Source: an uncultured bacterium (GTDB lineage Bacteria; Hydrogenedentota; Hydrogenedentia; Hydrogenedentales; JAEUWI01). Taken from it: 39,447 nucleotides of DNA. The position numbers and the translations under genes were made by a program. Every line of letters begins with the position of its first letter. Within the stretch, counting starts at the first letter, position 1. The notes below the pieces were generated by a model. It was not told where the DNA came from and searched no databases. It worked only from the letters and a program-made list of their open reading frames with translations. Positions 13,269-34,115 of this stretch are shown piece by piece. The stretch lies in assembly GCA_963977445.1 (NCBI GenBank), contig CAXBPH010000028.1:1-39447 (forward strand), read 5' to 3'.

Positions 13269-14759
13269 ATGATGTTCATTGGTAGTAAGACGGACAGCAC
13301 GGTTTTCGATGTCTTTAAAATTGGATTGGCGTCGTTGATTCGGCAGATGGGCATGCCCACTGTATTCAAGTTCTCCACGGATATCGCCGTCATGTCGGCC
13401 CGGGCTGCGGACGTCAACAAACGCGTCGACTATCTTCAGATCAAGTTCAAGGTCAAAGAAGATGCGACCCTGGAAGCGATCAAAGCGAAGATTGAAGAAA
13501 CCCGCATTCAGTGCCATGTCGATTTGAAGGAGGGTAAATGTTCTATTACCGTGCCCCCCTTCGAGCTGAGTCAGGTACCCCGCCTCGCGTCTATCGACAG
13601 CGTGGTAGAGGCGTTCATCGTCAGCAGCCTTCGCTCGATGACATGGACACTCACACCGGAAACCTTCGTTAAGTCCGATTTCAACATCAACATGTTGATC
13701 GAGACCATGGAGAAAATCGGCGCATCCGATCTTCACCTTCGTGCCGGTAACCGACCCTATATCCGCCTCGATGGTGATCTCACAGCCATGGACTACAGTG
13801 TCGTGTCGGCCGACGACATGAGGCGCATCATCCTGGAGCTCGGCGGCGAGGCAGAGCTTAATCTCCTGCAGACCGAAAAAGAATCCAGCTTTCAGTATCA
13901 CGCGGCGGGTGTGGGCTATCTCCGTTGCTCCGGCTATATCAAGACCGGTGCCATGGCGCTCGCTATTCGCTTAATCCCGGAAGCGCCCATCCCACTCGCC
14001 AAACTGGATCTGCCACCCATCGTGGAGAAAATGTGCTGGAAACATCGTGGTCTCTTTCTGGTATGTGGTATTACGGGTAGTGGTAAATCCACGACGCTGG
14101 CGGCCATGGTGGACTACATCAATGAAAATCGCCAGACCCACATTATCACCACAGAAGACCCCATCGAATTCGTGTATACGGATAAAAAGAGTATCATTTC
14201 CCAGCGTATGGTGGGCCGCGATACCTTTTCCTTCGCCAATGCTCTTCGCGGCGCGTTGCGTGAAGATCCCGACGTAATTCTCGTGGGCGAAATGCGCGAC
14301 GTAGACACGATTCGCGCTGCGCTGAGTGCGGCTGAAACGGGTCACATGGTGTTCAGTACCCTGCACACGACCACCGCCATCGATACGGTCAACCGTATTA
14401 TCAGTTACTTCCCGCCGAGCGAACGAGACCTGGTACGCCAGGAGGTGGCCTACACGCTGATGGCGGTCGTATGTCAGCGCCTGCTCAAGCGTAAGGGTGG
14501 CGGCCGTATTCCCTGTGTGGAAATTCTCATCGGCGGACGGCCCATCGTTCGTGACGCTATTGAAGAGGGCGATCTGGACAAGCTTCACGGCATCATGGAG
14601 CAGGACAGCGAAATGCAATCCTTCGACCAATACGCCGTGGAATTGTATAAGCAAGACATTGTAGAGCGTTCCGAAGCCATCTCCGCCTGCGCCGATGTGG
14701 AAGCCTTTGAGCGGGTCATGTCGGGCATCATGTCATCCAGCGGCAAACTGCTGAAATAA
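13269..14759 (+). CDS. PilT/PilU family retraction ATPase with an N-terminal extension
   Basis: GASDLHL, CGITGSGKSTT, TEDPIE, ALREDPDVILVGEMRD, AETGHMVFSTLHT. Start uncertain (13269, 13347 or 13353). Confidence 0.9.
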   Translation: MMFIGSKTDSTVFDVFKIGLASLIRQMGMPTVFKFSTDIAVMSARAADVNKRVDYLQIKFKVKEDATLEAIKAKIEETRIQCHVDLKEGKCSITVPPFELSQVPRLASIDSVVEAFIVSSLRSMTWTLTPETFVKSDFNINMLIETMEKIGASDLHLRAGNRPYIRLDGDLTAMDYSVVSADDMRRIILELGGEAELNLLQTEKESSFQYHAAGVGYLRCSGYIKTGAMALAIRLIPEAPIPLAKLDLPPIVEKMCWKHRGLFLVCGITGSGKSTTLAAMVDYINENRQTHIITTEDPIEFVYTDKKSIISQRMVGRDTFSFANALRGALREDPDVILVGEMRDVDTIRAALSAAETGHMVFSTLHTTTAIDTVNRIISYFPPSERDLVRQEVAYTLMAVVCQRLLKRKGGGRIPCVEILIGGRPIVRDAIEEGDLDKLHGIMEQDSEMQSFDQYAVELYKQDIVERSEAISACADVEAFERVMSGIMSSSGKLLK

Positions 14760-18090: not shown

Positions 18091-19488
18091 TTAGCCTTCC
18101 AGATCGTATTTCTGCAGCCGGTAGCGGAGGGAGCGTGCCGTCAGACCCAGCAGACTTGCCGCGCGCTTCTGAGAATAGCGCCCTTTTTCCAGGGCCTGTT
18201 GAATCAGATCGATCTCCAGATCGGCGATCAACTGCTCCATGTCCATCCCGCCATCGGGCACCACCGCCGCCAAGGGCGATGAAGCTACATCCCGGTCGGG
18301 CTGGTAACTGGACAGGTTTTCCGGCAGGTCATCGAGGCCAATCTGATTGTCCAGGCACAAGGCAAGCGCCCGTTCCATTACATTGCCAAGTTCACGAACG
18401 TTCCCAGGCCAATTGTAACGATTCAAAGCCGTCTGTGCCTCGGCCGATATTTCGAGGTCTTCCCGTCCCATCTTCCGTGCATGGTGTTTTACGAAGTGAC
18501 GGCACAGCAGGGGAATATCATCTTTACGATCCCGCAGCGGCGGCACCGTAATCGGAATCACGTTCAGGCGATAAAAGAGATCGCTGCGAAAGGTGCCTTC
18601 CTCGGCCATCTTCTCCAGGTCACGGTTGGTCGCCGATACAAGGCGCACATCCACCTTGATGTCCGTGGTACTGCCCACCGGCGTTACGGTGTTGTTATCC
18701 AGCACGCGGAGCAATTTCACCTGCAACATGAGTGGCATTTCGCCGATTTCATCGAGAAAAATGGTGCCCCCATTGGCCACGACAAAGAGACCTTCTTTAT
18801 CATCGGTTGCACCGGTAAAGGACCCTTTCTTGTGACCAAAGAGTTCGCTTTCCAGGAGGTTTTCGGGAATACCGCCGCAATTTATTGCCACAAAAGGCTT
18901 ATTCGCGCGGTTACTCAGATTGTGCAGCGCCCGGGCCACCAACTCCTTACCCGCACCACTTTCTCCGTGCACGGCGACCGTGCTGGGCAGGGCGGCAACG
19001 CGCCGAATCATTTTCATCACACTTTGAAAGGCCGGACTCTTGCCAATCATGTTGTCGATGTCGCCCTGTCGGGCCTGCTCTTTACGGAGTGCTATATTCT
19101 CCCGAAGCAAGTTGCGCTGGGCTATTGCGCGCTCAATCAGGATACGAATTTCATCGTTCTTGAAGGGCTTCATGATGTAGTCAGCCGCGCCGCGTTTCAT
19201 GGCCTCGATGGCCGTTTCCACCGAGCCGTGGGCCGTCATCATGATGGCCGGCGTACCGGGTGAATTGGCTTCAATCCAGCTCAAGAGCTTCATACCGGCA
19301 TTGCGGTCCTGCCCCATGTGCAAATCGGTCAACACCACATCGTAGTGCGTTGCTTCGAGCAGCTCACAGGCATTGGCCACATCATTGGCCGTTGCGACGT
19401 CATACCCGTCGTTTTGCAACACGATCTCGAGGAGTTCGCGCATACTTAATTCATCGTCCACTACCAGGACTTGCTGTTTCATCGACAC
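18091..19488 (-). CDS. pilR: Sigma-54-dependent response regulator PilR (REC-AAA+-HTH)
   Basis: VLVVDDE, GESGAGKE, ESELFGHKKGSFTGA, FLDEIGE, WPGNVREL and a Fis-type HTH. Directly downstream of the pilS-like kinase in the pilB-pilT cluster. Confidence 0.85.
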   Translation of the reverse strand: MSMKQQVLVVDDELSMRELLEIVLQNDGYDVATANDVANACELLEATHYDVVLTDLHMGQDRNAGMKLLSWIEANSPGTPAIMMTAHGSVETAIEAMKRGAADYIMKPFKNDEIRILIERAIAQRNLLRENIALRKEQARQGDIDNMIGKSPAFQSVMKMIRRVAALPSTVAVHGESGAGKELVARALHNLSNRANKPFVAINCGGIPENLLESELFGHKKGSFTGATDDKEGLFVVANGGTIFLDEIGEMPLMLQVKLLRVLDNNTVTPVGSTTDIKVDVRLVSATNRDLEKMAEEGTFRSDLFYRLNVIPITVPPLRDRKDDIPLLCRHFVKHHARKMGREDLEISAEAQTALNRYNWPGNVRELGNVMERALALCLDNQIGLDDLPENLSSYQPDRDVASSPLAAVVPDGGMDMEQLIADLEIDLIQQALEKGRYSQKRAASLLGLTARSLRYRLQKYDLEG

Positions 19489-19491
19489 CGC

Positions 19492-21141
19492 TTACGGCCT
19501 CCTTGTAGGGTCGCTGTACGCTTCGGCTGTTTCCCGGGCCTGGGGCAGGCGCACACTCATCGAGGTGCCACCGCCAGGACGAGACGCCGCCTGAATGGTT
19601 CCGTCGTGGGCCGTAATCATGCGCATGCAAATGGCAAGTCCCATACCCACACCCCGGGCTTTTTCGGTATAAAAAGGCTCAAATATCTTGGCCACTTTGT
19701 CGGGCGAAATACCCGGACCGTTGTCATTAAAGCATATTTCCATGGGGCCACGACCATCATTGTGATCCAACGTAATTTCGAGGATTCCATCTCCGGCCAT
19801 GGCTTCGATCGCATTCTGGCCCAGATTGGTAAAGACCTGCCATATTTGGGTCTTATCCCCCGTGACCAGACAGGGCTCATCGGGCGTCCGGAGCGTTATA
19901 GTCAGATCACCTTCAGCGCCATACTTCCGGCGAAGTTGCTCGTCCACTTCCCGCGCCACGTCCCTAATATCAAACAAGGCATATCGTCGACTCGGGTCGC
20001 GGGCGAAATCAAGAAACCCCGTTACGATCTCATTCAGGTGGTCCGATTCCCGGACGGCAATCGCCGCCAGACGAGACACCAAATCGGGCGAATCTATATT
20101 GCGTTGCATCTCGTCCATGCTGCCGCGAATCGACGCAACCGGATTTCTAATTTCGTGGGCAAGGCCAGCGGAAAGCTCTCCGATAACCGCCATGCGATCC
20201 TGCTGTTGCAATTCCTTGCGCATCCGGGCCATTTCCGTAAGATCGGTAAAGGACGCAATGAGTCCCGTGAGATGACCGTGAACATCCCGAATCCGGTTGG
20301 TGGTAAGGCCGAGCAGCTTGGAGGAATCAACACCAATCTGCGTATAAAATTCGTAGCTCGTAAAATCTTTTTTCAGGCGCAGGGCCGTCGTCACCGGGCA
20401 CTCGGCGCCCGACTCGGGGACGATGATGCCATCCACATGGCGACCGGCCACGTTGGCTTCCACCAGATTCAGGATGCCACAGGCGGCCTTGTTCATGGCC
20501 ACGACAAGACCCTTGGCGTCGGTTATGAGAAAGCCGCTGTTCATGTTATCCAGGATTTCCCGCTGGAACTGCTTCATCCGACTGACGCGCTGATTCCAAT
20601 AGCCGCTGATAAAGGCGGTGAAGAAAAAGGCCAATCCCTGGATGAGATAGTGGTACCAATGGGCGAGCTGGTCGTTCGCCTGCGGTGCAGTAATGAACAC
20701 CTGATAGAACATATACAGGGAGGCCATCGTTGCAAAGACAAAGCCCTGCAACAGCCCCATGAGCACACCGGCTTCGAGGATAACGATTACCAGCAGGAAC
20801 GTAAAAAAGCTGGTGTGCCCCCCCGTATAACTGATCGTGGCGGCAACCACGCCAAAATCCACCAGCACCTGGGTCCAGGTGAGAATGGCCGGCACCGAGT
20901 TGTCCCGCTTTAGAACAATTAAGTACCACATGCTGCTGGCAAATGCAGACGCGTAAATTGCCGTAAGCAGGTGACGAAAGGCCTCTTCCTCATCCGCGAC
21001 CAATTGGGCACCAATGGCCACCACGACAAGCATGCCGATGCGGGCCAGCCCCACAAACCACAGCCATGTCGACGGCCCATCATAAGACGGCCGCAGGTAA
21101 TCAAGAATCGTCGTTGTCTGTTGAAGGAGACGTCGGATCAC
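19492..21141 (-). CDS. pilS: Sensor histidine kinase PilS (TM-PAS-HisKA-HATPase)
   Basis: About 6 N-terminal TM helices, PAS, LAHEIRNP, NLGQNA, DNGPG, GVGMGLAI. Start overlaps the pilT stop. Confidence 0.83.
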   Translation of the reverse strand: MIRRLLQQTTTILDYLRPSYDGPSTWLWFVGLARIGMLVVVAIGAQLVADEEEAFRHLLTAIYASAFASSMWYLIVLKRDNSVPAILTWTQVLVDFGVVAATISYTGGHTSFFTFLLVIVILEAGVLMGLLQGFVFATMASLYMFYQVFITAPQANDQLAHWYHYLIQGLAFFFTAFISGYWNQRVSRMKQFQREILDNMNSGFLITDAKGLVVAMNKAACGILNLVEANVAGRHVDGIIVPESGAECPVTTALRLKKDFTSYEFYTQIGVDSSKLLGLTTNRIRDVHGHLTGLIASFTDLTEMARMRKELQQQDRMAVIGELSAGLAHEIRNPVASIRGSMDEMQRNIDSPDLVSRLAAIAVRESDHLNEIVTGFLDFARDPSRRYALFDIRDVAREVDEQLRRKYGAEGDLTITLRTPDEPCLVTGDKTQIWQVFTNLGQNAIEAMAGDGILEITLDHNDGRGPMEICFNDNGPGISPDKVAKIFEPFYTEKARGVGMGLAICMRMITAHDGTIQAASRPGGGTSMSVRLPQARETAEAYSDPTRRP

Positions 21142-22211
21142 ATTCCCTTTTCCATCAGGTGCTGCAGGCCTTCGGCGTCCGCACTTCGCTTGAAGGCCAT
21201 TTCCGTGGTGATAATTCCCCGCTTGGACAGGCGATAGAGGGACTGGTTCATGGTGAGCATACCCTCGCCTTTTCCAATTTCAATCATGGAGGGAATCTGC
21301 TCCAGTTTCTCGGCGCGAATCAGCGAACGAATGGCTGGGTTAGCCAACATGATTTCCATAGCAAGGGCCCGGCCCATACCATCGGCGCGGGGCACCAGCT
21401 GCTGCACCACAACGGCTTCCAACACAAAGGAGAGCTGGGTTCGTACCTGTGCCTGCTGCCCGGCGGGGAACACGTCGATAATACGGTTCATCGTCTGCAG
21501 AGCATCGTTGGTGTGGAGGGTCGCAAAGGCGAGGTGACCGGTTTCCGCCACGGTAAGGGCCGCCTGGATCGTTTCCGTATCGCGCATTTCACCAATAAGA
21601 ATTACGTCGGGATCCTGACGCAATACGCGCTTCAAGGCCGCCGAAAAAGAGTCGGTATCGGCATGAATCTCGCGCTGATTTACGACGCTTCGGTTGTGTC
21701 GGTGAAGATATTCGATGGGATCCTCAATCGTAATGATGTGTGTATTGCGCTCACGATTGATTTTGTCAATTATCGAAGCAAGGGTCGTCGATTTACCGGA
21801 ACCGGTGGGGCCGCATACCAGAACTAGCCCAAAGGGTTTATAGGCGAAATCAGCAATTACCCGGGGAAGGCCCAATTGTTCGAAGGCCAGAATCTCGAAA
21901 GGAATGGCACGAAATGCCGCCACCACCGAGCCCCGATCGCGATAGACGTTGAGACGAAATCGGCTCAGGCCTTCAATACCGAAAGACAGATCGCACTCGC
22001 GTGTCGATTCAAATTCCGCGATCTGATCTTCATTCATCACCGTATAGATGACTTCCTGGGTCTGCTCCGCCGAAAGACGTGGGTATCCAGGTAACGGTTC
22101 CAGACCACCATGGAGACGAATCATAGGCGGTGCGCCGACAACGATGTGCAAGTCACTGGCCCCGGCCTTAATCGCTTTGGTCAGCAATTCCTTGATATTC
22201 GGTGTGGACAT
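21138..22211 (-). CDS. pilT: Type IV pilus retraction ATPase PilT
   Basis: GASDLHI, GPTGSGKSTT, EDPIE, RQDPDVILIGEMRD, AETGHL, AIRSLIRA (AIRNLIRE-like). Start ATG 22211 follows GGAGG. Confidence 0.92.
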   Translation of the reverse strand: MSTPNIKELLTKAIKAGASDLHIVVGAPPMIRLHGGLEPLPGYPRLSAEQTQEVIYTVMNEDQIAEFESTRECDLSFGIEGLSRFRLNVYRDRGSVVAAFRAIPFEILAFEQLGLPRVIADFAYKPFGLVLVCGPTGSGKSTTLASIIDKINRERNTHIITIEDPIEYLHRHNRSVVNQREIHADTDSFSAALKRVLRQDPDVILIGEMRDTETIQAALTVAETGHLAFATLHTNDALQTMNRIIDVFPAGQQAQVRTQLSFVLEAVVVQQLVPRADGMGRALAMEIMLANPAIRSLIRAEKLEQIPSMIEIGKGEGMLTMNQSLYRLSKRGIITTEMAFKRSADAEGLQHLMEKGM

Positions 22212-22364
22212 TCTTCCTCCTTTGGCTGGTAATTCCCTGTGACCCAACTCGTATGTGCAACGCACGTGGCCGGTGCCAGCACCCCCCGATGCTAACCCGG
22301 CGAACACCTGCTCCGTACTATTCTCGGCAACCGATACATCGCCAAGAATCAGCGTGCAATGGGA

Positions 22365-24089
22365 TTAATCGTGTGACGTGTGTTCCAATACCTGCTCGAT
22401 AGTGGACACGCCTTTTGCTGCTTTGGCCAACCCATTTTGACGCAGGGTCTGCATACCGCAGGCGATTGCCTGATTCTTAATATCATACCCCGAGGCACGC
22501 TGCAACACGAGGGGCTGTAATTCAGGCCAGTTGAGCAAGGCCTCAATAACGGCGACACGACCACGGTAGCCCGTTTCTTTACAACGGCTGCAACCACGAC
22601 CACGAACAAATTGTATTTGTTCCAGATAGTCAAAGCCGCGCCACTGGATGCGATCCAGCACTTCCTCAGGCACATTGATGGGTTCTTTACAATCCGAACA
22701 CACCCGTTTGAATAGTCGCTGGGCAGCCGCCAGAGCAACAGACGATTGGACCAGGAAGGGCTCGATACCCATATCCATCAAACGGGGGAACACACCGGCC
22801 GCATCGTTGGTGTGGAGGGTACTCAGCACGAGGTGACCCGTCAACGCCGCTTTTACCGCAACGTCGGCCGTTTCACCGTCTCGAATTTCACCAACCATCA
22901 CGATATCCGGGTCCTGACGCAGAATCTGTCGCAAGGCCGACGCGAAGGTGAAGCCGATGGTCGATTGCACCTGTACCTGGTTTACACCGAAGAGGTCATA
23001 TTCGATGGGGTCCTCAACGGTAACCACATTGGATTCCGGTGAATTCAGTTTGTGAAGGGCACTATACAGCGTGGTCGTTTTACCCGAACCCGTGGGACCC
23101 GTCAGCAGCAACATGCCGTGGGGCAATTTGAGGGCCTCCAGCATGGCCGTAACCGGTTGGGGCTCAAAACCGAGGGTATCCAGACCGAGCGTCAGATTCG
23201 ACTGATCGAGCACACGCAACACGATCTTTTCGCCATATTTACACGGAAGGAAACCAACACGAAAGTCAATCTCGCGGCCGTTGTAGCGAATACGAAACCG
23301 TCCGTCCTGGGGCAGACGGTGCTCGTCAATTCGGCACCCACAAAGGATTTTAAATCGGGCGATGATATTCTGCTGAAGACTCTTTGGGGGCGCTTTGGCC
23401 TCTTCCAGCGTACCGTCGACACGATAGCGGACCCGGATAAGTTTTTCGAAGGGCTCCAGGTGAATATCACTGGCACCCCGCTCAAGGGCGTTGAAAAGGA
23501 TCAGACGGGCCAGCTTCTTCACGGGTTCGTCTTCTGCGCCCACTTCGAGCCGGGATACGTCTTCTATATCATCCGTTGTTTTGAGTTCTTCTACGTTGGC
23601 GTCGCCTTCTTCATGGCCCACAATTGAGGCGTAGAGATCTTCGGCCTTACCGCCACCATAGTGCTTATCAATGGCACCGGCCAACTCCGACGACACCGCC
23701 ACCACCGGCTCAATTTCGTAACTCGTCAACATCCGCAAATCATCGAGGGCCATGATATTGAGGGGGTCGGCCATGGCCAACGTCAAGACGTCGCCGGTCA
23801 CGCTCACGGGCAACATCTGGTATTGGCGGGCCAGCGTCTCGGGCACTTCGGAAAGCACCTCTTTGGGGATGGAATAGTGGGCCACGCGAATGTGGGGAAT
23901 CCCCAGCTGCTCGCTGAGGGTAATGACCAAATCCTCTTCCGATAAATATTCTTTACTCACCAGGAGACTGGGCAAGCTCATTCCCGTCTGACGGTGCAGG
24001 TTGATGCACTCCTGCAACTGTTCCTGGGTCACAAGCTGCTGCTCGAGCAACATGTCCGGCAATCGCTTCTTAGTTGCGCGTGTCGCCAT
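22365..24089 (-). CDS. pilB: Type IV pilus assembly ATPase PilB (GspE family)
   Basis: MshEN-like N-terminus, ASDIHLEP, RLPQDGR, GPTGSGKTTT, RQDPDIVMVGEIRD, tetracysteine CSDC/CSRC. Strong RBS AAGGAGG. Confidence 0.92.
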   Translation of the reverse strand: MATRATKKRLPDMLLEQQLVTQEQLQECINLHRQTGMSLPSLLVSKEYLSEEDLVITLSEQLGIPHIRVAHYSIPKEVLSEVPETLARQYQMLPVSVTGDVLTLAMADPLNIMALDDLRMLTSYEIEPVVAVSSELAGAIDKHYGGGKAEDLYASIVGHEEGDANVEELKTTDDIEDVSRLEVGAEDEPVKKLARLILFNALERGASDIHLEPFEKLIRVRYRVDGTLEEAKAPPKSLQQNIIARFKILCGCRIDEHRLPQDGRFRIRYNGREIDFRVGFLPCKYGEKIVLRVLDQSNLTLGLDTLGFEPQPVTAMLEALKLPHGMLLLTGPTGSGKTTTLYSALHKLNSPESNVVTVEDPIEYDLFGVNQVQVQSTIGFTFASALRQILRQDPDIVMVGEIRDGETADVAVKAALTGHLVLSTLHTNDAAGVFPRLMDMGIEPFLVQSSVALAAAQRLFKRVCSDCKEPINVPEEVLDRIQWRGFDYLEQIQFVRGRGCSRCKETGYRGRVAVIEALLNWPELQPLVLQRASGYDIKNQAIACGMQTLRQNGLAKAAKGVSTIEQVLEHTSHD

Positions 24090-24182: not shown

Positions 24183-26564
24183 TCATGCCGCTTCTTCTCC
24201 CCCAATATGACTGAGAATTTCGGTCGCCATTTCCACGCTGATCGCTTCGTTGGAGAGCGCAGCGAAGGCGGTAATCTTGCGCAATGAACCCACCATTTTA
24301 CGTATATCGTCTGATACCCGCATGGCTACGAGCGAACAGATTTCTTCGGGGAGTGTCACGCCACTCTGCTGCACATGTTGGCGCAATATTTTCATGCGCG
24401 TTTCCCATTCCGGGGGCTTGAGTTCGGCCACGATGCCGCTCGCGAACCGCGATACGAGTCGTTGCTCCAAAAGCCCCAGACGATCGGGCGCTTTGTCTCC
24501 TGCAATAATAATCTGCCGACCGCGCTGGTGCAACACATTAAAAATGTGAAAGAACTCTTCCTGCGCCTCGACACGGCCCCCCATAAACTGGATGTCATCC
24601 AGGATAAGCACATCCCAATGACAATAGTTGTCCCGGAAGGCCATCTGGGCGTCGGCCGCCAACGCCTCTTTCAGTCGACGTGAAAAGTGACTGGCAGAGA
24701 CATAGCCAACCCGTTGGCCGGGATTGGTCTGTTGGATGTGATTTCCTACGGCGCTTATAAGGTGGGTCTTACCCAACCCGACGTGTCCATATAGAAAGAG
24801 GGGGTTGTATTCACTACCCGGCTTTGCGGCGACCGCCTGGCATATCTTTGTGGTAAAGGCGTTGGCTTCCCCGGGGAAAAATCGTTCAAAGGTCAGGCTC
24901 TCCAACGGCACTTCTGACTCCAAACCATCACGTACGCGGGCATCTTCCTCCGCCTGGCGGGGATCTTCTTCCCCCGCCGGGGTGGAACCGAAAGGCGATA
25001 CAGAGGCATGGGCGGCACGATTGCCGTGTTGGAGATTCTGGACCCGCTCGTTCTGTACCAAGGTCGCTTCTATGAGTTGAGAGGTTTGCTGCGACGACTC
25101 TACCGCTGCTTCAGCTATTGCGGCCAGACGGGCACCCTGGATTTCCTGAGACTGCTGGCTGGTGGTGAGGATTTCCCGAATGGAGGTCACCATACCGGTC
25201 TGCGCTTCACGCAACGCAGCGACGACCTGCTCCATTTGTGCACTGCTGTCGCCCCCGCTATTGGCACGGGTTTGCACGACGAGCGTGGCGAGAACCTCCT
25301 GCATCACGCCGCCCAGGGTGTCACGCATGGTTTCCGCAATCGCCTCCAATGACGGCGCTTCAGGCTGATCAGACTTACTGGTCGCGCGGAGTTGCACCAG
25401 CACGGTCGCGAGGGCCTCTTGCATGGCCCCACCGACGCTATCACGAATGACCTCGGCCATCGTTTCGCCAGAAAGCTGTTCGGGCGCACGGGACAAGGTG
25501 TCTGACAAGCGCTGGAGTACTTCTTCCATGCCCGATGTCGCGGGGACAGCGGGTACCGGGGCCATTGCAGGCACTTCGACCGGAGGTGGGGGTGCACTGA
25601 CCGGGGCGGGCGCGCGAACGACCCCTTTGAGTTCTTCTATGGAGGACCGAAAGGCGGCTTCCAGCCCCGACCAATCCGGTGCAGGAGCCGGGGCAGGGGT
25701 TGCAGTTGCGGCAGGAACTACGGGGGACCGGTCGGCCGATTTCAGGGCCTCCAGCACGGCTTCGCGCATTGAGGTCTGAATCATTTCGCCGAATCGCTCT
25801 ATGGGAAAGGGCGCGTTCTCGGTTGGTGCCGGTGCCCGCTGTTCCCCTAGCTGCTTACCCAGCAACTCAGCGACACCACTGAATCCTGCATGAATGGCGG
25901 AAACCAAGGCGCCGGTATCCATAGCCGCACTGGACGCAGGCGGAGCAGGAGCAGGAGCAGGAGCAGGTTTGGGCGGGGCGGGTTTGGGGGGCAAGGCACT
26001 CAGGCCCAGAGAAGCGGCGCTCATTTCACCGCTACCACCACTACCGCCACTTTTGTTCCCCGAGAAATATTTGGTCATTACCTGTTCGAAGTGCGTCCAG
26101 TTGCACAAGATAGGTTTGACGCGCAATTCAGGACAGGCCGTGCGCACCGCGTCCAGGGCGGTCACGTCCAGCGGATCCACCATGGCGATGGTCAAAATCC
26201 GGCCGAGCTTGTCGATGGGAATCAGACCGTGTTCCAGGCACAGTGCTTCGGGAACCAGCGCCAGCACGTCGCTACCCACGTCATAGTCCAGCAAGCTGAT
26301 ATGGGGAATCTTGCATTTCTTTACAAAACAGGCATTGAGTGCTTCTTGGGTTACATAATTGGATTGGACCACGATTTTTGCAAGGAAGGCCCCATTCCTT
26401 TCACGCTCCGCCCTCGCCTCGGTCAGCTGGTCCGCTGTAATAAGCTGCGCATCGACCAGTAGATCGCCGAGACTATTGAAAACAGCGCCACCACGCCCAT
26501 CCGGGTTACCGGCAGCAGACGGGTTGCCTGAGTTATCGCGATCATCGGTCATGTAAGTCGACAC
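24183..26564 (-). CDS. Fusion: PilB/GspE N-terminal (MshEN-like) domain + Pro/Ala-rich and helical linker + DnaA AAA+ domain (no DNA-binding domain IV)
   Basis: N-terminus SLGDLLVDAQLITADQL..IPIDKLGRILTIAMVDPLD parallels the adjacent PilB N-terminus (LPVSVTGDVLTLAMADPLN). C-terminus TFERF..YNPLFLYGHVGLGKTHL..LILDDIQF..QEEFFHIFN..RLVSRF..PPEWETR is DnaA domain III. Start GTG 26564 or ATG 26552. Confidence 0.9.
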   Translation of the reverse strand: MSTYMTDDRDNSGNPSAAGNPDGRGGAVFNSLGDLLVDAQLITADQLTEARAERERNGAFLAKIVVQSNYVTQEALNACFVKKCKIPHISLLDYDVGSDVLALVPEALCLEHGLIPIDKLGRILTIAMVDPLDVTALDAVRTACPELRVKPILCNWTHFEQVMTKYFSGNKSGGSGGSGEMSAASLGLSALPPKPAPPKPAPAPAPAPPASSAAMDTGALVSAIHAGFSGVAELLGKQLGEQRAPAPTENAPFPIERFGEMIQTSMREAVLEALKSADRSPVVPAATATPAPAPAPDWSGLEAAFRSSIEELKGVVRAPAPVSAPPPPVEVPAMAPVPAVPATSGMEEVLQRLSDTLSRAPEQLSGETMAEVIRDSVGGAMQEALATVLVQLRATSKSDQPEAPSLEAIAETMRDTLGGVMQEVLATLVVQTRANSGGDSSAQMEQVVAALREAQTGMVTSIREILTTSQQSQEIQGARLAAIAEAAVESSQQTSQLIEATLVQNERVQNLQHGNRAAHASVSPFGSTPAGEEDPRQAEEDARVRDGLESEVPLESLTFERFFPGEANAFTTKICQAVAAKPGSEYNPLFLYGHVGLGKTHLISAVGNHIQQTNPGQRVGYVSASHFSRRLKEALAADAQMAFRDNYCHWDVLILDDIQFMGGRVEAQEEFFHIFNVLHQRGRQIIIAGDKAPDRLGLLEQRLVSRFASGIVAELKPPEWETRMKILRQHVQQSGVTLPEEICSLVAMRVSDDIRKMVGSLRKITAFAALSNEAISVEMATEILSHIGGEEAA
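25942..25967. repeat. (GGAGCA)4 in-frame tandem repeat encoding PAPAPAPA in the fusion linker
   Basis: ggagcaggagcaggagcaggagcagg read directly. Confidence 0.85.
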
Positions 26565-26637
26565 ACTCCCTGGTACGGACGTATGGTGTCCCTGGTTGCG
26601 TGGTCTCTAAAAGTCCACGCGTATGGATCCATACTCG

Positions 26638-26666
26638 ATTGTAACATCGAGGGGAAAAACGGTCAA
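26638..26666 (-). promoter_or_regulatory. Sigma-70 promoter candidate for the DnaA-fusion/pilB cluster
   Basis: Minus strand TTGACC-17 nt-TACAAT with an extended -10 TG, about 75-85 nt upstream of the start. Confidence 0.62.
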
Positions 26667-33680: not shown

Positions 33681-34115
33681 CTAATTACTTGAGACAATAG
33701 GACTGTCCGGTGATGGGTCTGCGCCAACGGCATATCGTATTGACCCGGTCGCATCTATTCGGAACCCGTGCCAGCCAGTCGCGTTATACTCGACGGGCGT
33801 CGCAAAGGCCACGAAATTCAGCGGATCGCCGCCAACGCGATACACATAACCATTTTTTGGCTCGATCCACGTTCCTCCCGTAAGGAAGGGCGGGTCTTCG
33901 TTGGTCAGGGCCGCCATATCGGTGGCATAGACATAGTACTGGGTGTTGTAGCTGTTTTGCGCATCCAGAATTACGCGAAGACTGGCTACTGCAGAGGCTT
34001 CATTGGCCTGAATGCGGGTACGAATATAGTTGGGCACGGCGATGGCCGCGAGGATAGCAATGATCTCTACGACGATCATTAATTCAATGAGTGTAAACCC
34101 CTTATTATTATTCAT
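33681..34115 (-). CDS. pilA: Type IVa pilin (PilA-like)
   Basis: Short leader MNNNKG/FTLIELMIVV with E5 and P22, then ANEASAVASLR..NGYVY. AAGGAG RBS and a sigma-54 promoter upstream. Confidence 0.85.
   Translation of the reverse strand: MNNNKGFTLIELMIVVEIIAILAAIAVPNYIRTRIQANEASAVASLRVILDAQNSYNTQYYVYATDMAALTNEDPPFLTGGTWIEPKNGYVYRVGGDPLNFVAFATPVEYNATGWHGFRIDATGSIRYAVGADPSPDSPIVSSN

Follow-up and report, generated by a model that had tools for sequence, protein, structure and literature searches.

The window analysed here is a stretch of 39,447 nucleotides (contig CAXBPH010000028.1 of assembly GCA_963977445.1, positions 1 to 39,447) from an uncultured bacterium of the phylum Hydrogenedentota. 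On its reverse strand, a cluster of type IV pilus genes, pilB-pilT-pilS-pilR, is headed by a gene that encodes an MshEN domain, as found at the N terminus of PilB, followed by a long helical linker and the AAA+ module (domain III) of the replication initiator DnaA. Since this fusion protein has none of the DNA-reading parts of DnaA, and since such fusions adjoin pilus genes in two phyla, it is most likely a type IV pilus regulator rather than a replication protein.

Gene and domain architecture

The open reading frame (Table 1) translates into 793 aa without internal stop. The gene probably starts at the ATG at 26552, giving 789 aa, because the database records begin there and only 1 nt separates the GTG from the GGGAG upstream of it. 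The sequence-only reading of this DNA had described a PilB-type N-terminal domain fused to a DnaA AAA+ module devoid of domains I and IV, and profile searches agree: Pfam places MshEN at residues 85-169 (E 2e-15) and Bac_DnaA at residues 557-713 (E 1e-52), with no match in the 793-aa protein to Bac_DnaA_C (PF08299, domain IV) or DnaA_N (domain I). The NCBIfam c-di-GMP (cyclic di-GMP) motif NF053729 passes narrowly at residues 32-78 (41 bits for a cut-off of 38). The whole-protein DnaA and Hda families stay below their cut-offs (TIGR00362, 283 bits against 344; TIGR03420, 110 against 194.8). There is no match to the PilB/GspE secretion ATPase domain PF00437, and TIGR02538 covers residues 32-172 only.

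Pfam, alignment, modeling and structure comparison all recover the fold of MshEN, with a four-helix ND0 and an alpha/beta ND1, the latter model matching PilF GSPII-A (9g1w) with a template modeling (TM) score of 0.78 by target. In an AlphaFold model of the full-length protein, built with 43 sequences, the predicted local confidence (pLDDT) exceeds 90 in both end domains and is low in the linker; the domains are not packed together (predicted TM score 0.41). The linker of about 380 aa described earlier is there, but it is not featureless: two conserved helical repeats lie within it, and its end is formed by a long predicted helix (residues 441-512) and an SVxPF motif. Across the family its length varies from 122 to 615 aa. 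A search of the ESM Atlas with residues 345-555 gave no usable feature match, and the structure rows had mostly TM scores below 0.5.

Table 1. Features of the fusion gene and of the adjoining pilus cluster in the window
Feature	Position	Strand	Basis
Sigma-70-type promoter (TTGACC, 17 nt, extended TG, TACAAT)	26638..26666	-	sequence match; similar element in relatives
MshEN - helical linker - DnaA-type AAA+ gene	24183..26564	-	translation, Pfam, NCBIfam, database records
MshEN_N (ND0), four-helix c-di-GMP-motif region, residues 31-83	26316..26474	-	NCBIfam, model, motif alignment
MshEN_C (ND1), alpha/beta, residues 85-169, best-conserved N-terminal part	26058..26312	-	Pfam, alignment
Pro/Ala-rich and helical linker, residues 173-549	24918..26048	-	alignment, model
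Two conserved helical repeats in linker, from residues 373 and 413	25266..25448	-	alignment
DnaA domain III (AAA+) module, residues 556-787, no domain IV after	24204..24899	-	Pfam, alignment, structure
pilB assembly ATPase	22365..24089	-	Pfam, NCBIfam
pilT retraction ATPase	21138..22307	-	TIGR01420, 476 bits, cut-off 319
PilS-like sensor kinase	19492..21141	-	Pfam 6TM_PilS, PAS, HisKA, HATPase_c
PilR-like sigma-54 response regulator	18091..19488	-	Pfam

Conservation in Hydrogenedentota

We found the same architecture in nearly all of the closest homologues. Leaving aside the record of the window itself, the best 120 are 39-68% identical to the fusion protein, and those that carry a taxonomic name are Hydrogenedentota. 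The MshEN domain is present in 118/120 and DnaA domain I or IV in none. This excludes a chimeric join as the source of the fusion. Two sequencing runs contained only short, low-depth pieces of relatives, none of which spans the gene, and so carry no information on the join. Among 135 Hydrogenedentota genomes, at least 112 have a member of the family: 103 with E <1e-90, seven weaker matches lying in frames of 800-1068 aa (two of these were opened and confirmed), and two more confirmed by opening the locus. Three genomes carry an MshEN-plus-linker form without the AAA+ module, in two of them still before pilB.

Fifty-three distinct fusion genes could be compared. The MshEN domain is visible in 50, the other three being cut by a contig end, and in all 52 with at least 600 nt downstream the next gene is pilB, so that both the architecture and the synteny noted from the single sequence extend across genomes. 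The genomes are kin, and the 52 linkages thus amount to one conserved arrangement rather than to 52 events. In databases these proteins often bear the name "chromosomal replication initiator DnaA", which is an annotation issue in its own right.

In the window the fusion gene ends 93 nt before the start of pilB, and coordinates and domain matches bear out its position at the head of the cluster. The promoter upstream was called good in the sequence-only reading. A similar element precedes the gene in 9/12 relatives, but the match by itself is weak, as the pattern occurs three times in the region against 1.4 times in shuffled sequence. Overlapping the promoter -10 and continuing past it are two short inverted repeats (26622-26652, reverse strand), with no conservation seen among the relatives displayed. 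The surroundings contain no dnaA or dnaN, the absence of the latter having been noted before, and a DnaA box was found in only 1/13 upstream regions, unconserved. A separate, canonical dnaA (476 aa, with domains I and IV), whose presence elsewhere in the genome had been expected, lies on contig C16; its product is 40% identical to the fusion in the AAA+ part. The pilM of this genome lies on yet another contig, C97, within a pilMNOPQ operon. In Hydrogenedentota PilM proteins (L246-L265) a long acidic stretch is inserted, within which an SLLDPLDDE-like motif is conserved.

Elsewhere in the window we noted a second ATPase of the PilT family, extended at its N terminus by about 135 aa (13269-14759, forward strand), a homologue of which directly follows pilR in genome G030, and, 7 kb away from the pil cluster, a pilin-like gene that stands alone and has an N-methylation motif (33681-34115, reverse strand).

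The AAA+ module

The AAA+ module aligns without gaps to residues 114-345 of Bacillus subtilis DnaA (offset 442), and its model superposes on 8btg, the root mean square deviation (rmsd) being 1.7 A. The alignment confirms every ATPase motif read from the sequence: Walker A (G593-T600), Walker B (D656/D657), sensor I (D690), the arginine finger (R706) and sensor II (R755). We compared 53 family domains with 60 canonical DnaAs, in B. subtilis numbering. The Walker A lysine, both Walker B aspartates, the arginine finger R264 and sensor II R313 are present in 53/53, and the sensor I aspartate in 47/53. A decayed copy of dnaA is rejected by this invariance of the catalytic residues. The genes of the family all stop 37-46 residues after sensor II (53/53).

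The pocket for single-stranded DNA (ssDNA) is altered. The roles of its residues in DnaA are taken from excerpts of PMC10721633 and 10.1101/2022.03.18.484894; in the latter, I190 and T225 are required for ssDNA binding by B. subtilis DnaA. The equivalent of I190, hydrophobic in 60/60 canonical DnaAs, is mostly Ala or Lys in the family, and that of T225 is Ala in 51/53. N187 is replaced by Arg in 34/53 and R206 by Cys in 44/53, position 224 is acidic (E/D) in 46/53, and the I193 position is mixed; the equivalents of F218, H231 and L269 are largely retained. Considered as a set, the residues that read ssDNA and the DnaA-trio (E183, N187, I190, I193, R202, K222, T225, E228) are not maintained. 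The E183 equivalent is Ser or Gly in 51/53, as compared with Glu or Asp in 60/60 canonical DnaAs. Its loss may slow hydrolysis in the family: in B. subtilis, DnaA E183Q has lower ATPase activity and is dominant negative (excerpts of PMC5319796).

A beta-clamp-binding hexapeptide, as defined for Hda in the part of PMC3836487 available, is missing: 0/53 members match QL[SD]LF or Q[LFM]xL[FP], and looser patterns are rarer than expected from shuffled sequences. In the genome, TIGR03420 matches only dnaA and the fusion gene, both under cut-off, and there is no Hda. The fusion is therefore not an Hda orthologue.

The MshEN domain

The c-di-GMP motif of MshEN is a tandem RLGxxL..LxxxLxxQ that includes G11, Q32, G40 and Q61 in Vibrio cholerae MshE numbering, by the definition given in the part of PMC5013675 available to us. 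In the window copy, ND0 has Ser at R9, Arg at L29 and Q32, Ala at G40, Phe at L58 and Lys at Q61. With R9, Q32, G40, L58 and Q61 missing, binding of c-di-GMP by this copy is doubtful, and the ability has probably been lost. The family at large is better preserved: among 47 scorable members, G11 is kept in 43, G40 in 39, Q61 in 35 and Q32 in 32. In 44 adjacent PilBs, G11 is present in 15 and G40 in none; the PilB of the window has Pro at both guanine-binding Gly positions of its own motif.

The MshEN of the window fusion is closer to those of three other fusions in the genome (39-51% identity) than to that of PilB (30%). The three (G000 C111:9324-10901, C151:4524-6017 and C163:13843-15315) have the same MshEN subtype, joined to what their sequences indicate to be PAS-GGDEF, FHA-GGDEF and cyclic nucleotide (cNMP)-binding domains. 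The subtype may serve the fusions of this genome as a shared localisation tag.

Relatives in other phyla

We searched 1.84 billion representative sequences by profile for further DnaA-type domains and scanned genomes with the AAA+ alignment, which listed at least 600 matches and is not a census. Beyond the family, DnaA-type domains without domain IV occur in other MshEN fusions, in tandem AAA+ proteins (the named ones from Gemmatimonadota), and in proteins fused to DUF835 or to C-terminal zinc ribbons (P0236, P0252, P0256; P0233, P0247, P0249, P0255). Scanning metagenomes with the N-terminal region of one further MshEN-DnaA protein found five loci, its own contig not among them. Four genomes of delta-proteobacterial type have a second, divergent yet complete DnaA with domain IV (L284-L287).

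For WOR-3 (51 genomes) we opened 21 second copies and dropped one as canonical; three of these loci supplied query proteins and so match themselves. Nine are MshEN-AAA+ fusions of 401-415 aa, all nine directly before a fused pilM-pilN gene, with a tetratricopeptide repeat (TPR) gene or mnmE on the other side (L196-L200, L202-L205). Several have pilO and a secretin beyond, and PilM/PilN were confirmed by Pfam in the four loci scanned. The other 11 copies (L195, L201, L206, L208-L215) are single or tandem degenerate DnaA-type AAA+ proteins beside a DUF4388-TPR gene; most have an MglA-like GTPase or roadblock gene upstream and cheR/cheD/cheB downstream, and pilT is near in five.

In Elusimicrobiota, 42/61 genomes have two matches. 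A pil gene lies near the paralogue in 12/19 loci (pilT in 11, a secretin in one; the 19 are 20 loci opened plus L082, minus one WOR-3 and one canonical), and some paralogues adjoin GAF histidine kinases. As a control, a pil-type match is near 1/60 canonical dnaA loci. In Sumerlaeota, 26/31 genomes have a second DnaA match; the protein (L266-L283, L095) has 1260-2150 aa and combines a CHC2 zinc finger and numerous TPRs with a DnaA AAA+ module at the C terminus that is not followed by domain IV. The finger is of primase type in 4/4 proteins scanned, three of them over cut-off, and the protein is possibly linked to replication. The idea that every DnaA paralogue without domain IV is pilus-linked was discarded, given the Sumerlaeota loci (0/19 with pil neighbours), six divergent Elusimicrobiota loci and L180, all without pil matches.

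A placement relative to both DnaA and Hda had been proposed, and was obtained for DnaA only: the careful tree has 70 domains drawn from the larger set, a midpoint root, no Hda and moderate backbone support. The Hydrogenedentota and WOR-3 fusions, the further MshEN fusions and one Sumerlaeota protein fall outside the branch of canonical DnaA (support 89/81), and the genome's own DnaA falls inside it (89/89). Quick trees agree on the placement of the window's family. To judge from the tree, the fusion protein did not arise as a recent copy of the DnaA encoded on C16. The Elusimicrobiota paralogues group within the canonical DnaAs.

Discussion

Two readings had been offered from the sequence: an Hda-like or dominant-negative link between pili and replication initiation, by co-polymerisation with the true DnaA or its regulation, or a repurposed polymerising ATPase within the pilus machine. 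In its Hda-like form the former lacks one defining feature, the clamp motif; co-polymerisation with DnaA may still occur. We favour the latter given the strict linkage to pilB, the pilM-linked fusion in WOR-3 and the remodelled ssDNA pocket, and we think it somewhat probable that the fusion belongs to the type IVa pilus motor as an accessory subunit switched by ATP, derived from an old DnaA paralogue. ND1 would dock on the inner-membrane platform (PilM), as it does on PilM/GspL in PilB/GspE homologues (excerpts of PMC8389850), or on a partner PilB. In most members ND0 would sense c-di-GMP, a task that the neighbouring PilB has apparently lost. The AAA+ module would self-assemble with ATP through its arginine finger, without DNA, clustering several MshEN heads. 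In this way the protein would act as a nucleotide switch, gating the recruitment of PilB or grouping pilus machines at one site.

Several observations weigh against this proposal. With the Hydrogenedentota pilM on a different contig, PilM as a partner is borrowed from the WOR-3 gene order and the literature. Of eight WOR-3 fusions aligned, four no longer have the arginine finger or sensor II and all eight lack the c-di-GMP glycines, so filament formation is not universal, and nor is the sensing of c-di-GMP. In the Hydrogenedentota family itself, R38 is always Phe or Tyr, and the relaxed published c-di-GMP motif is matched by only 19/53 members (4/45 PilBs), the window copy not among them. Some residues of the ssDNA site are kept (R202 in 52/53, E228 in 53/53, K222 as Arg or Lys in 47/53). 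At least three genomes that lack the gene keep pilB-pilT-pilS-pilR, with unrelated genes upstream. Finally, none of the 19 loci of the Sumerlaeota relative, which falls into the same region of the tree, has pil neighbours.

We regard it as unlikely that the fusion is instead a pilus-tethered modulator of replication initiation, through which surface contact or c-di-GMP would tune initiation by way of an AAA+ module that joins DnaA filaments, caps them, or provides DnaA-ATP with its arginine finger. The finger is present in 53/53 and the genome has no Hda, but the clamp-binding motif is missing in 53/53, and four WOR-3 copies without the finger still sit in the pilM operon. Similarly, the equivalents of R202, F218, E228, H231 and L269 are largely retained, but that of R206 is Cys in 44/53. 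The primase-type CHC2 zinc finger of the Sumerlaeota relative, and the loss of the glutamate whose substitution (E183Q) is dominant negative in B. subtilis in the PMC5319796 excerpts, would fit a role in replication; the position of the family outside the canonical DnaA branch, the absence of the gene, or of its AAA+ module alone, from several genomes that are 95-97% complete, and the lack of dnaA/dnaN context and of a conserved upstream DnaA box would not.

Less probable again is a signalling scaffold that brings PilS/PilR or c-di-GMP enzymes together at the base of the pilus and governs the expression of pilin or pilus genes. The gene does head an apparent operon with pilS and pilR, and its MshEN subtype is fused to PAS-GGDEF, FHA-GGDEF and cNMP-type domains elsewhere in the genome; the WOR-3 MshEN fusions, however, are part of a structural operon, pilMNOPQ, and no kinase adjoins them. 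Elusimicrobiota paralogues do neighbor GAF histidine kinases, and other WOR-3 paralogues MglA-like GTPase, DUF4388 and che genes, but no kinase-binding domain was recognised in the fusion itself.

Many bacteria take up DNA by means of type IVa pili, and an ATPase that binds the backbone of incoming ssDNA at the pilus base, without trio specificity, would explain the retained R202, K222 and E228 equivalents, but it is very improbable, given that I190 and T225 are replaced, that position 224 is acidic, and that no competence gene was seen recurring beside the Hydrogenedentota gene, in scans none of which was aimed at competence genes.

Returning to the accessory pilus subunit, we tentatively extend the idea to other lineages: type IV pilus and polarity systems may have taken up the DnaA AAA+ module on more than one occasion, to serve them as an ATP-switched polymer apart from DNA. 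The candidate instances are the MshEN fusions of Hydrogenedentota (before pilB) and WOR-3 (before pilM), the WOR-3 tandem proteins beside MglA-like GTPases, and the Elusimicrobiota paralogues, from canonical DnaA, beside pilT. In the boldest form of this proposal the polymer would also talk to the true DnaA, connecting surface contact or c-di-GMP to replication initiation, and the fusion is a direct candidate for such coupling of pilus and cell cycle.

DnaA-type AAA+ modules serve replication initiation, its control and related DNA transactions. A conserved family with the ATP switch intact and the DNA contacts gone, found beside pilus genes in two phyla and having looser relatives in one more, would put the initiator fold to a new use and add a new type of regulator for pili. 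The c-di-GMP sensor also seems to have moved from PilB to a neighbouring gene.

Comparison with known systems

As far as searched, the family is undescribed, an MshEN fusion with an output domain of unexpected origin. The earlier statement that no characterised protein has this architecture agrees with a full-text literature search, which found no description and whose coverage leaves out most subscription journals. Neither section 12 nor two supplements of PMC5013675 name a DnaA fusion, and the DnaA-like ATPases mentioned in PMC4158269 are viral archaeal only.

The closest structural likeness is to domain III of B. subtilis DnaA (PDB 8btg/8bv3; 40% identity, rmsd 1.7-1.9 A), with which the fusion shares all ATPase motifs and the arginine finger. 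Unlike DnaA, it has no domain I or IV, lies in a pil context and on a separate branch of the tree, and has changed equivalents of E183, N187, I190, R206 and T225. Like Hda/HdaA, it is a DnaA-type AAA+ protein without domain IV that retains the arginine finger; in contrast to these, it lacks the QL[SP]LPL/QFKLPL clamp motif, has intact Walker A and B and a long N-terminal fusion, and is about 20% identical in the fold search, versus 40% to DnaA.

With MshEN proteins (V. cholerae MshE, 5HTL; Thermus thermophilus PilF GSPII; the fusions in the available part of PMC5013675) it shares the ND0+ND1 fold, a partly kept two-part motif and a modular fusion to an output domain. It differs in that this output is an AAA+ module of the initiator clade, in the constantly aromatic R38 position and in the degenerate window copy. 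The nearest functional parallel is PilZ-FimX of Xanthomonas citri, where c-di-GMP input likewise reaches PilB from outside, the motif being absent from its ND0 (excerpts of PMC8389850); the domains are unrelated, and the fusion carries its own PilB-like head and AAA+ module.

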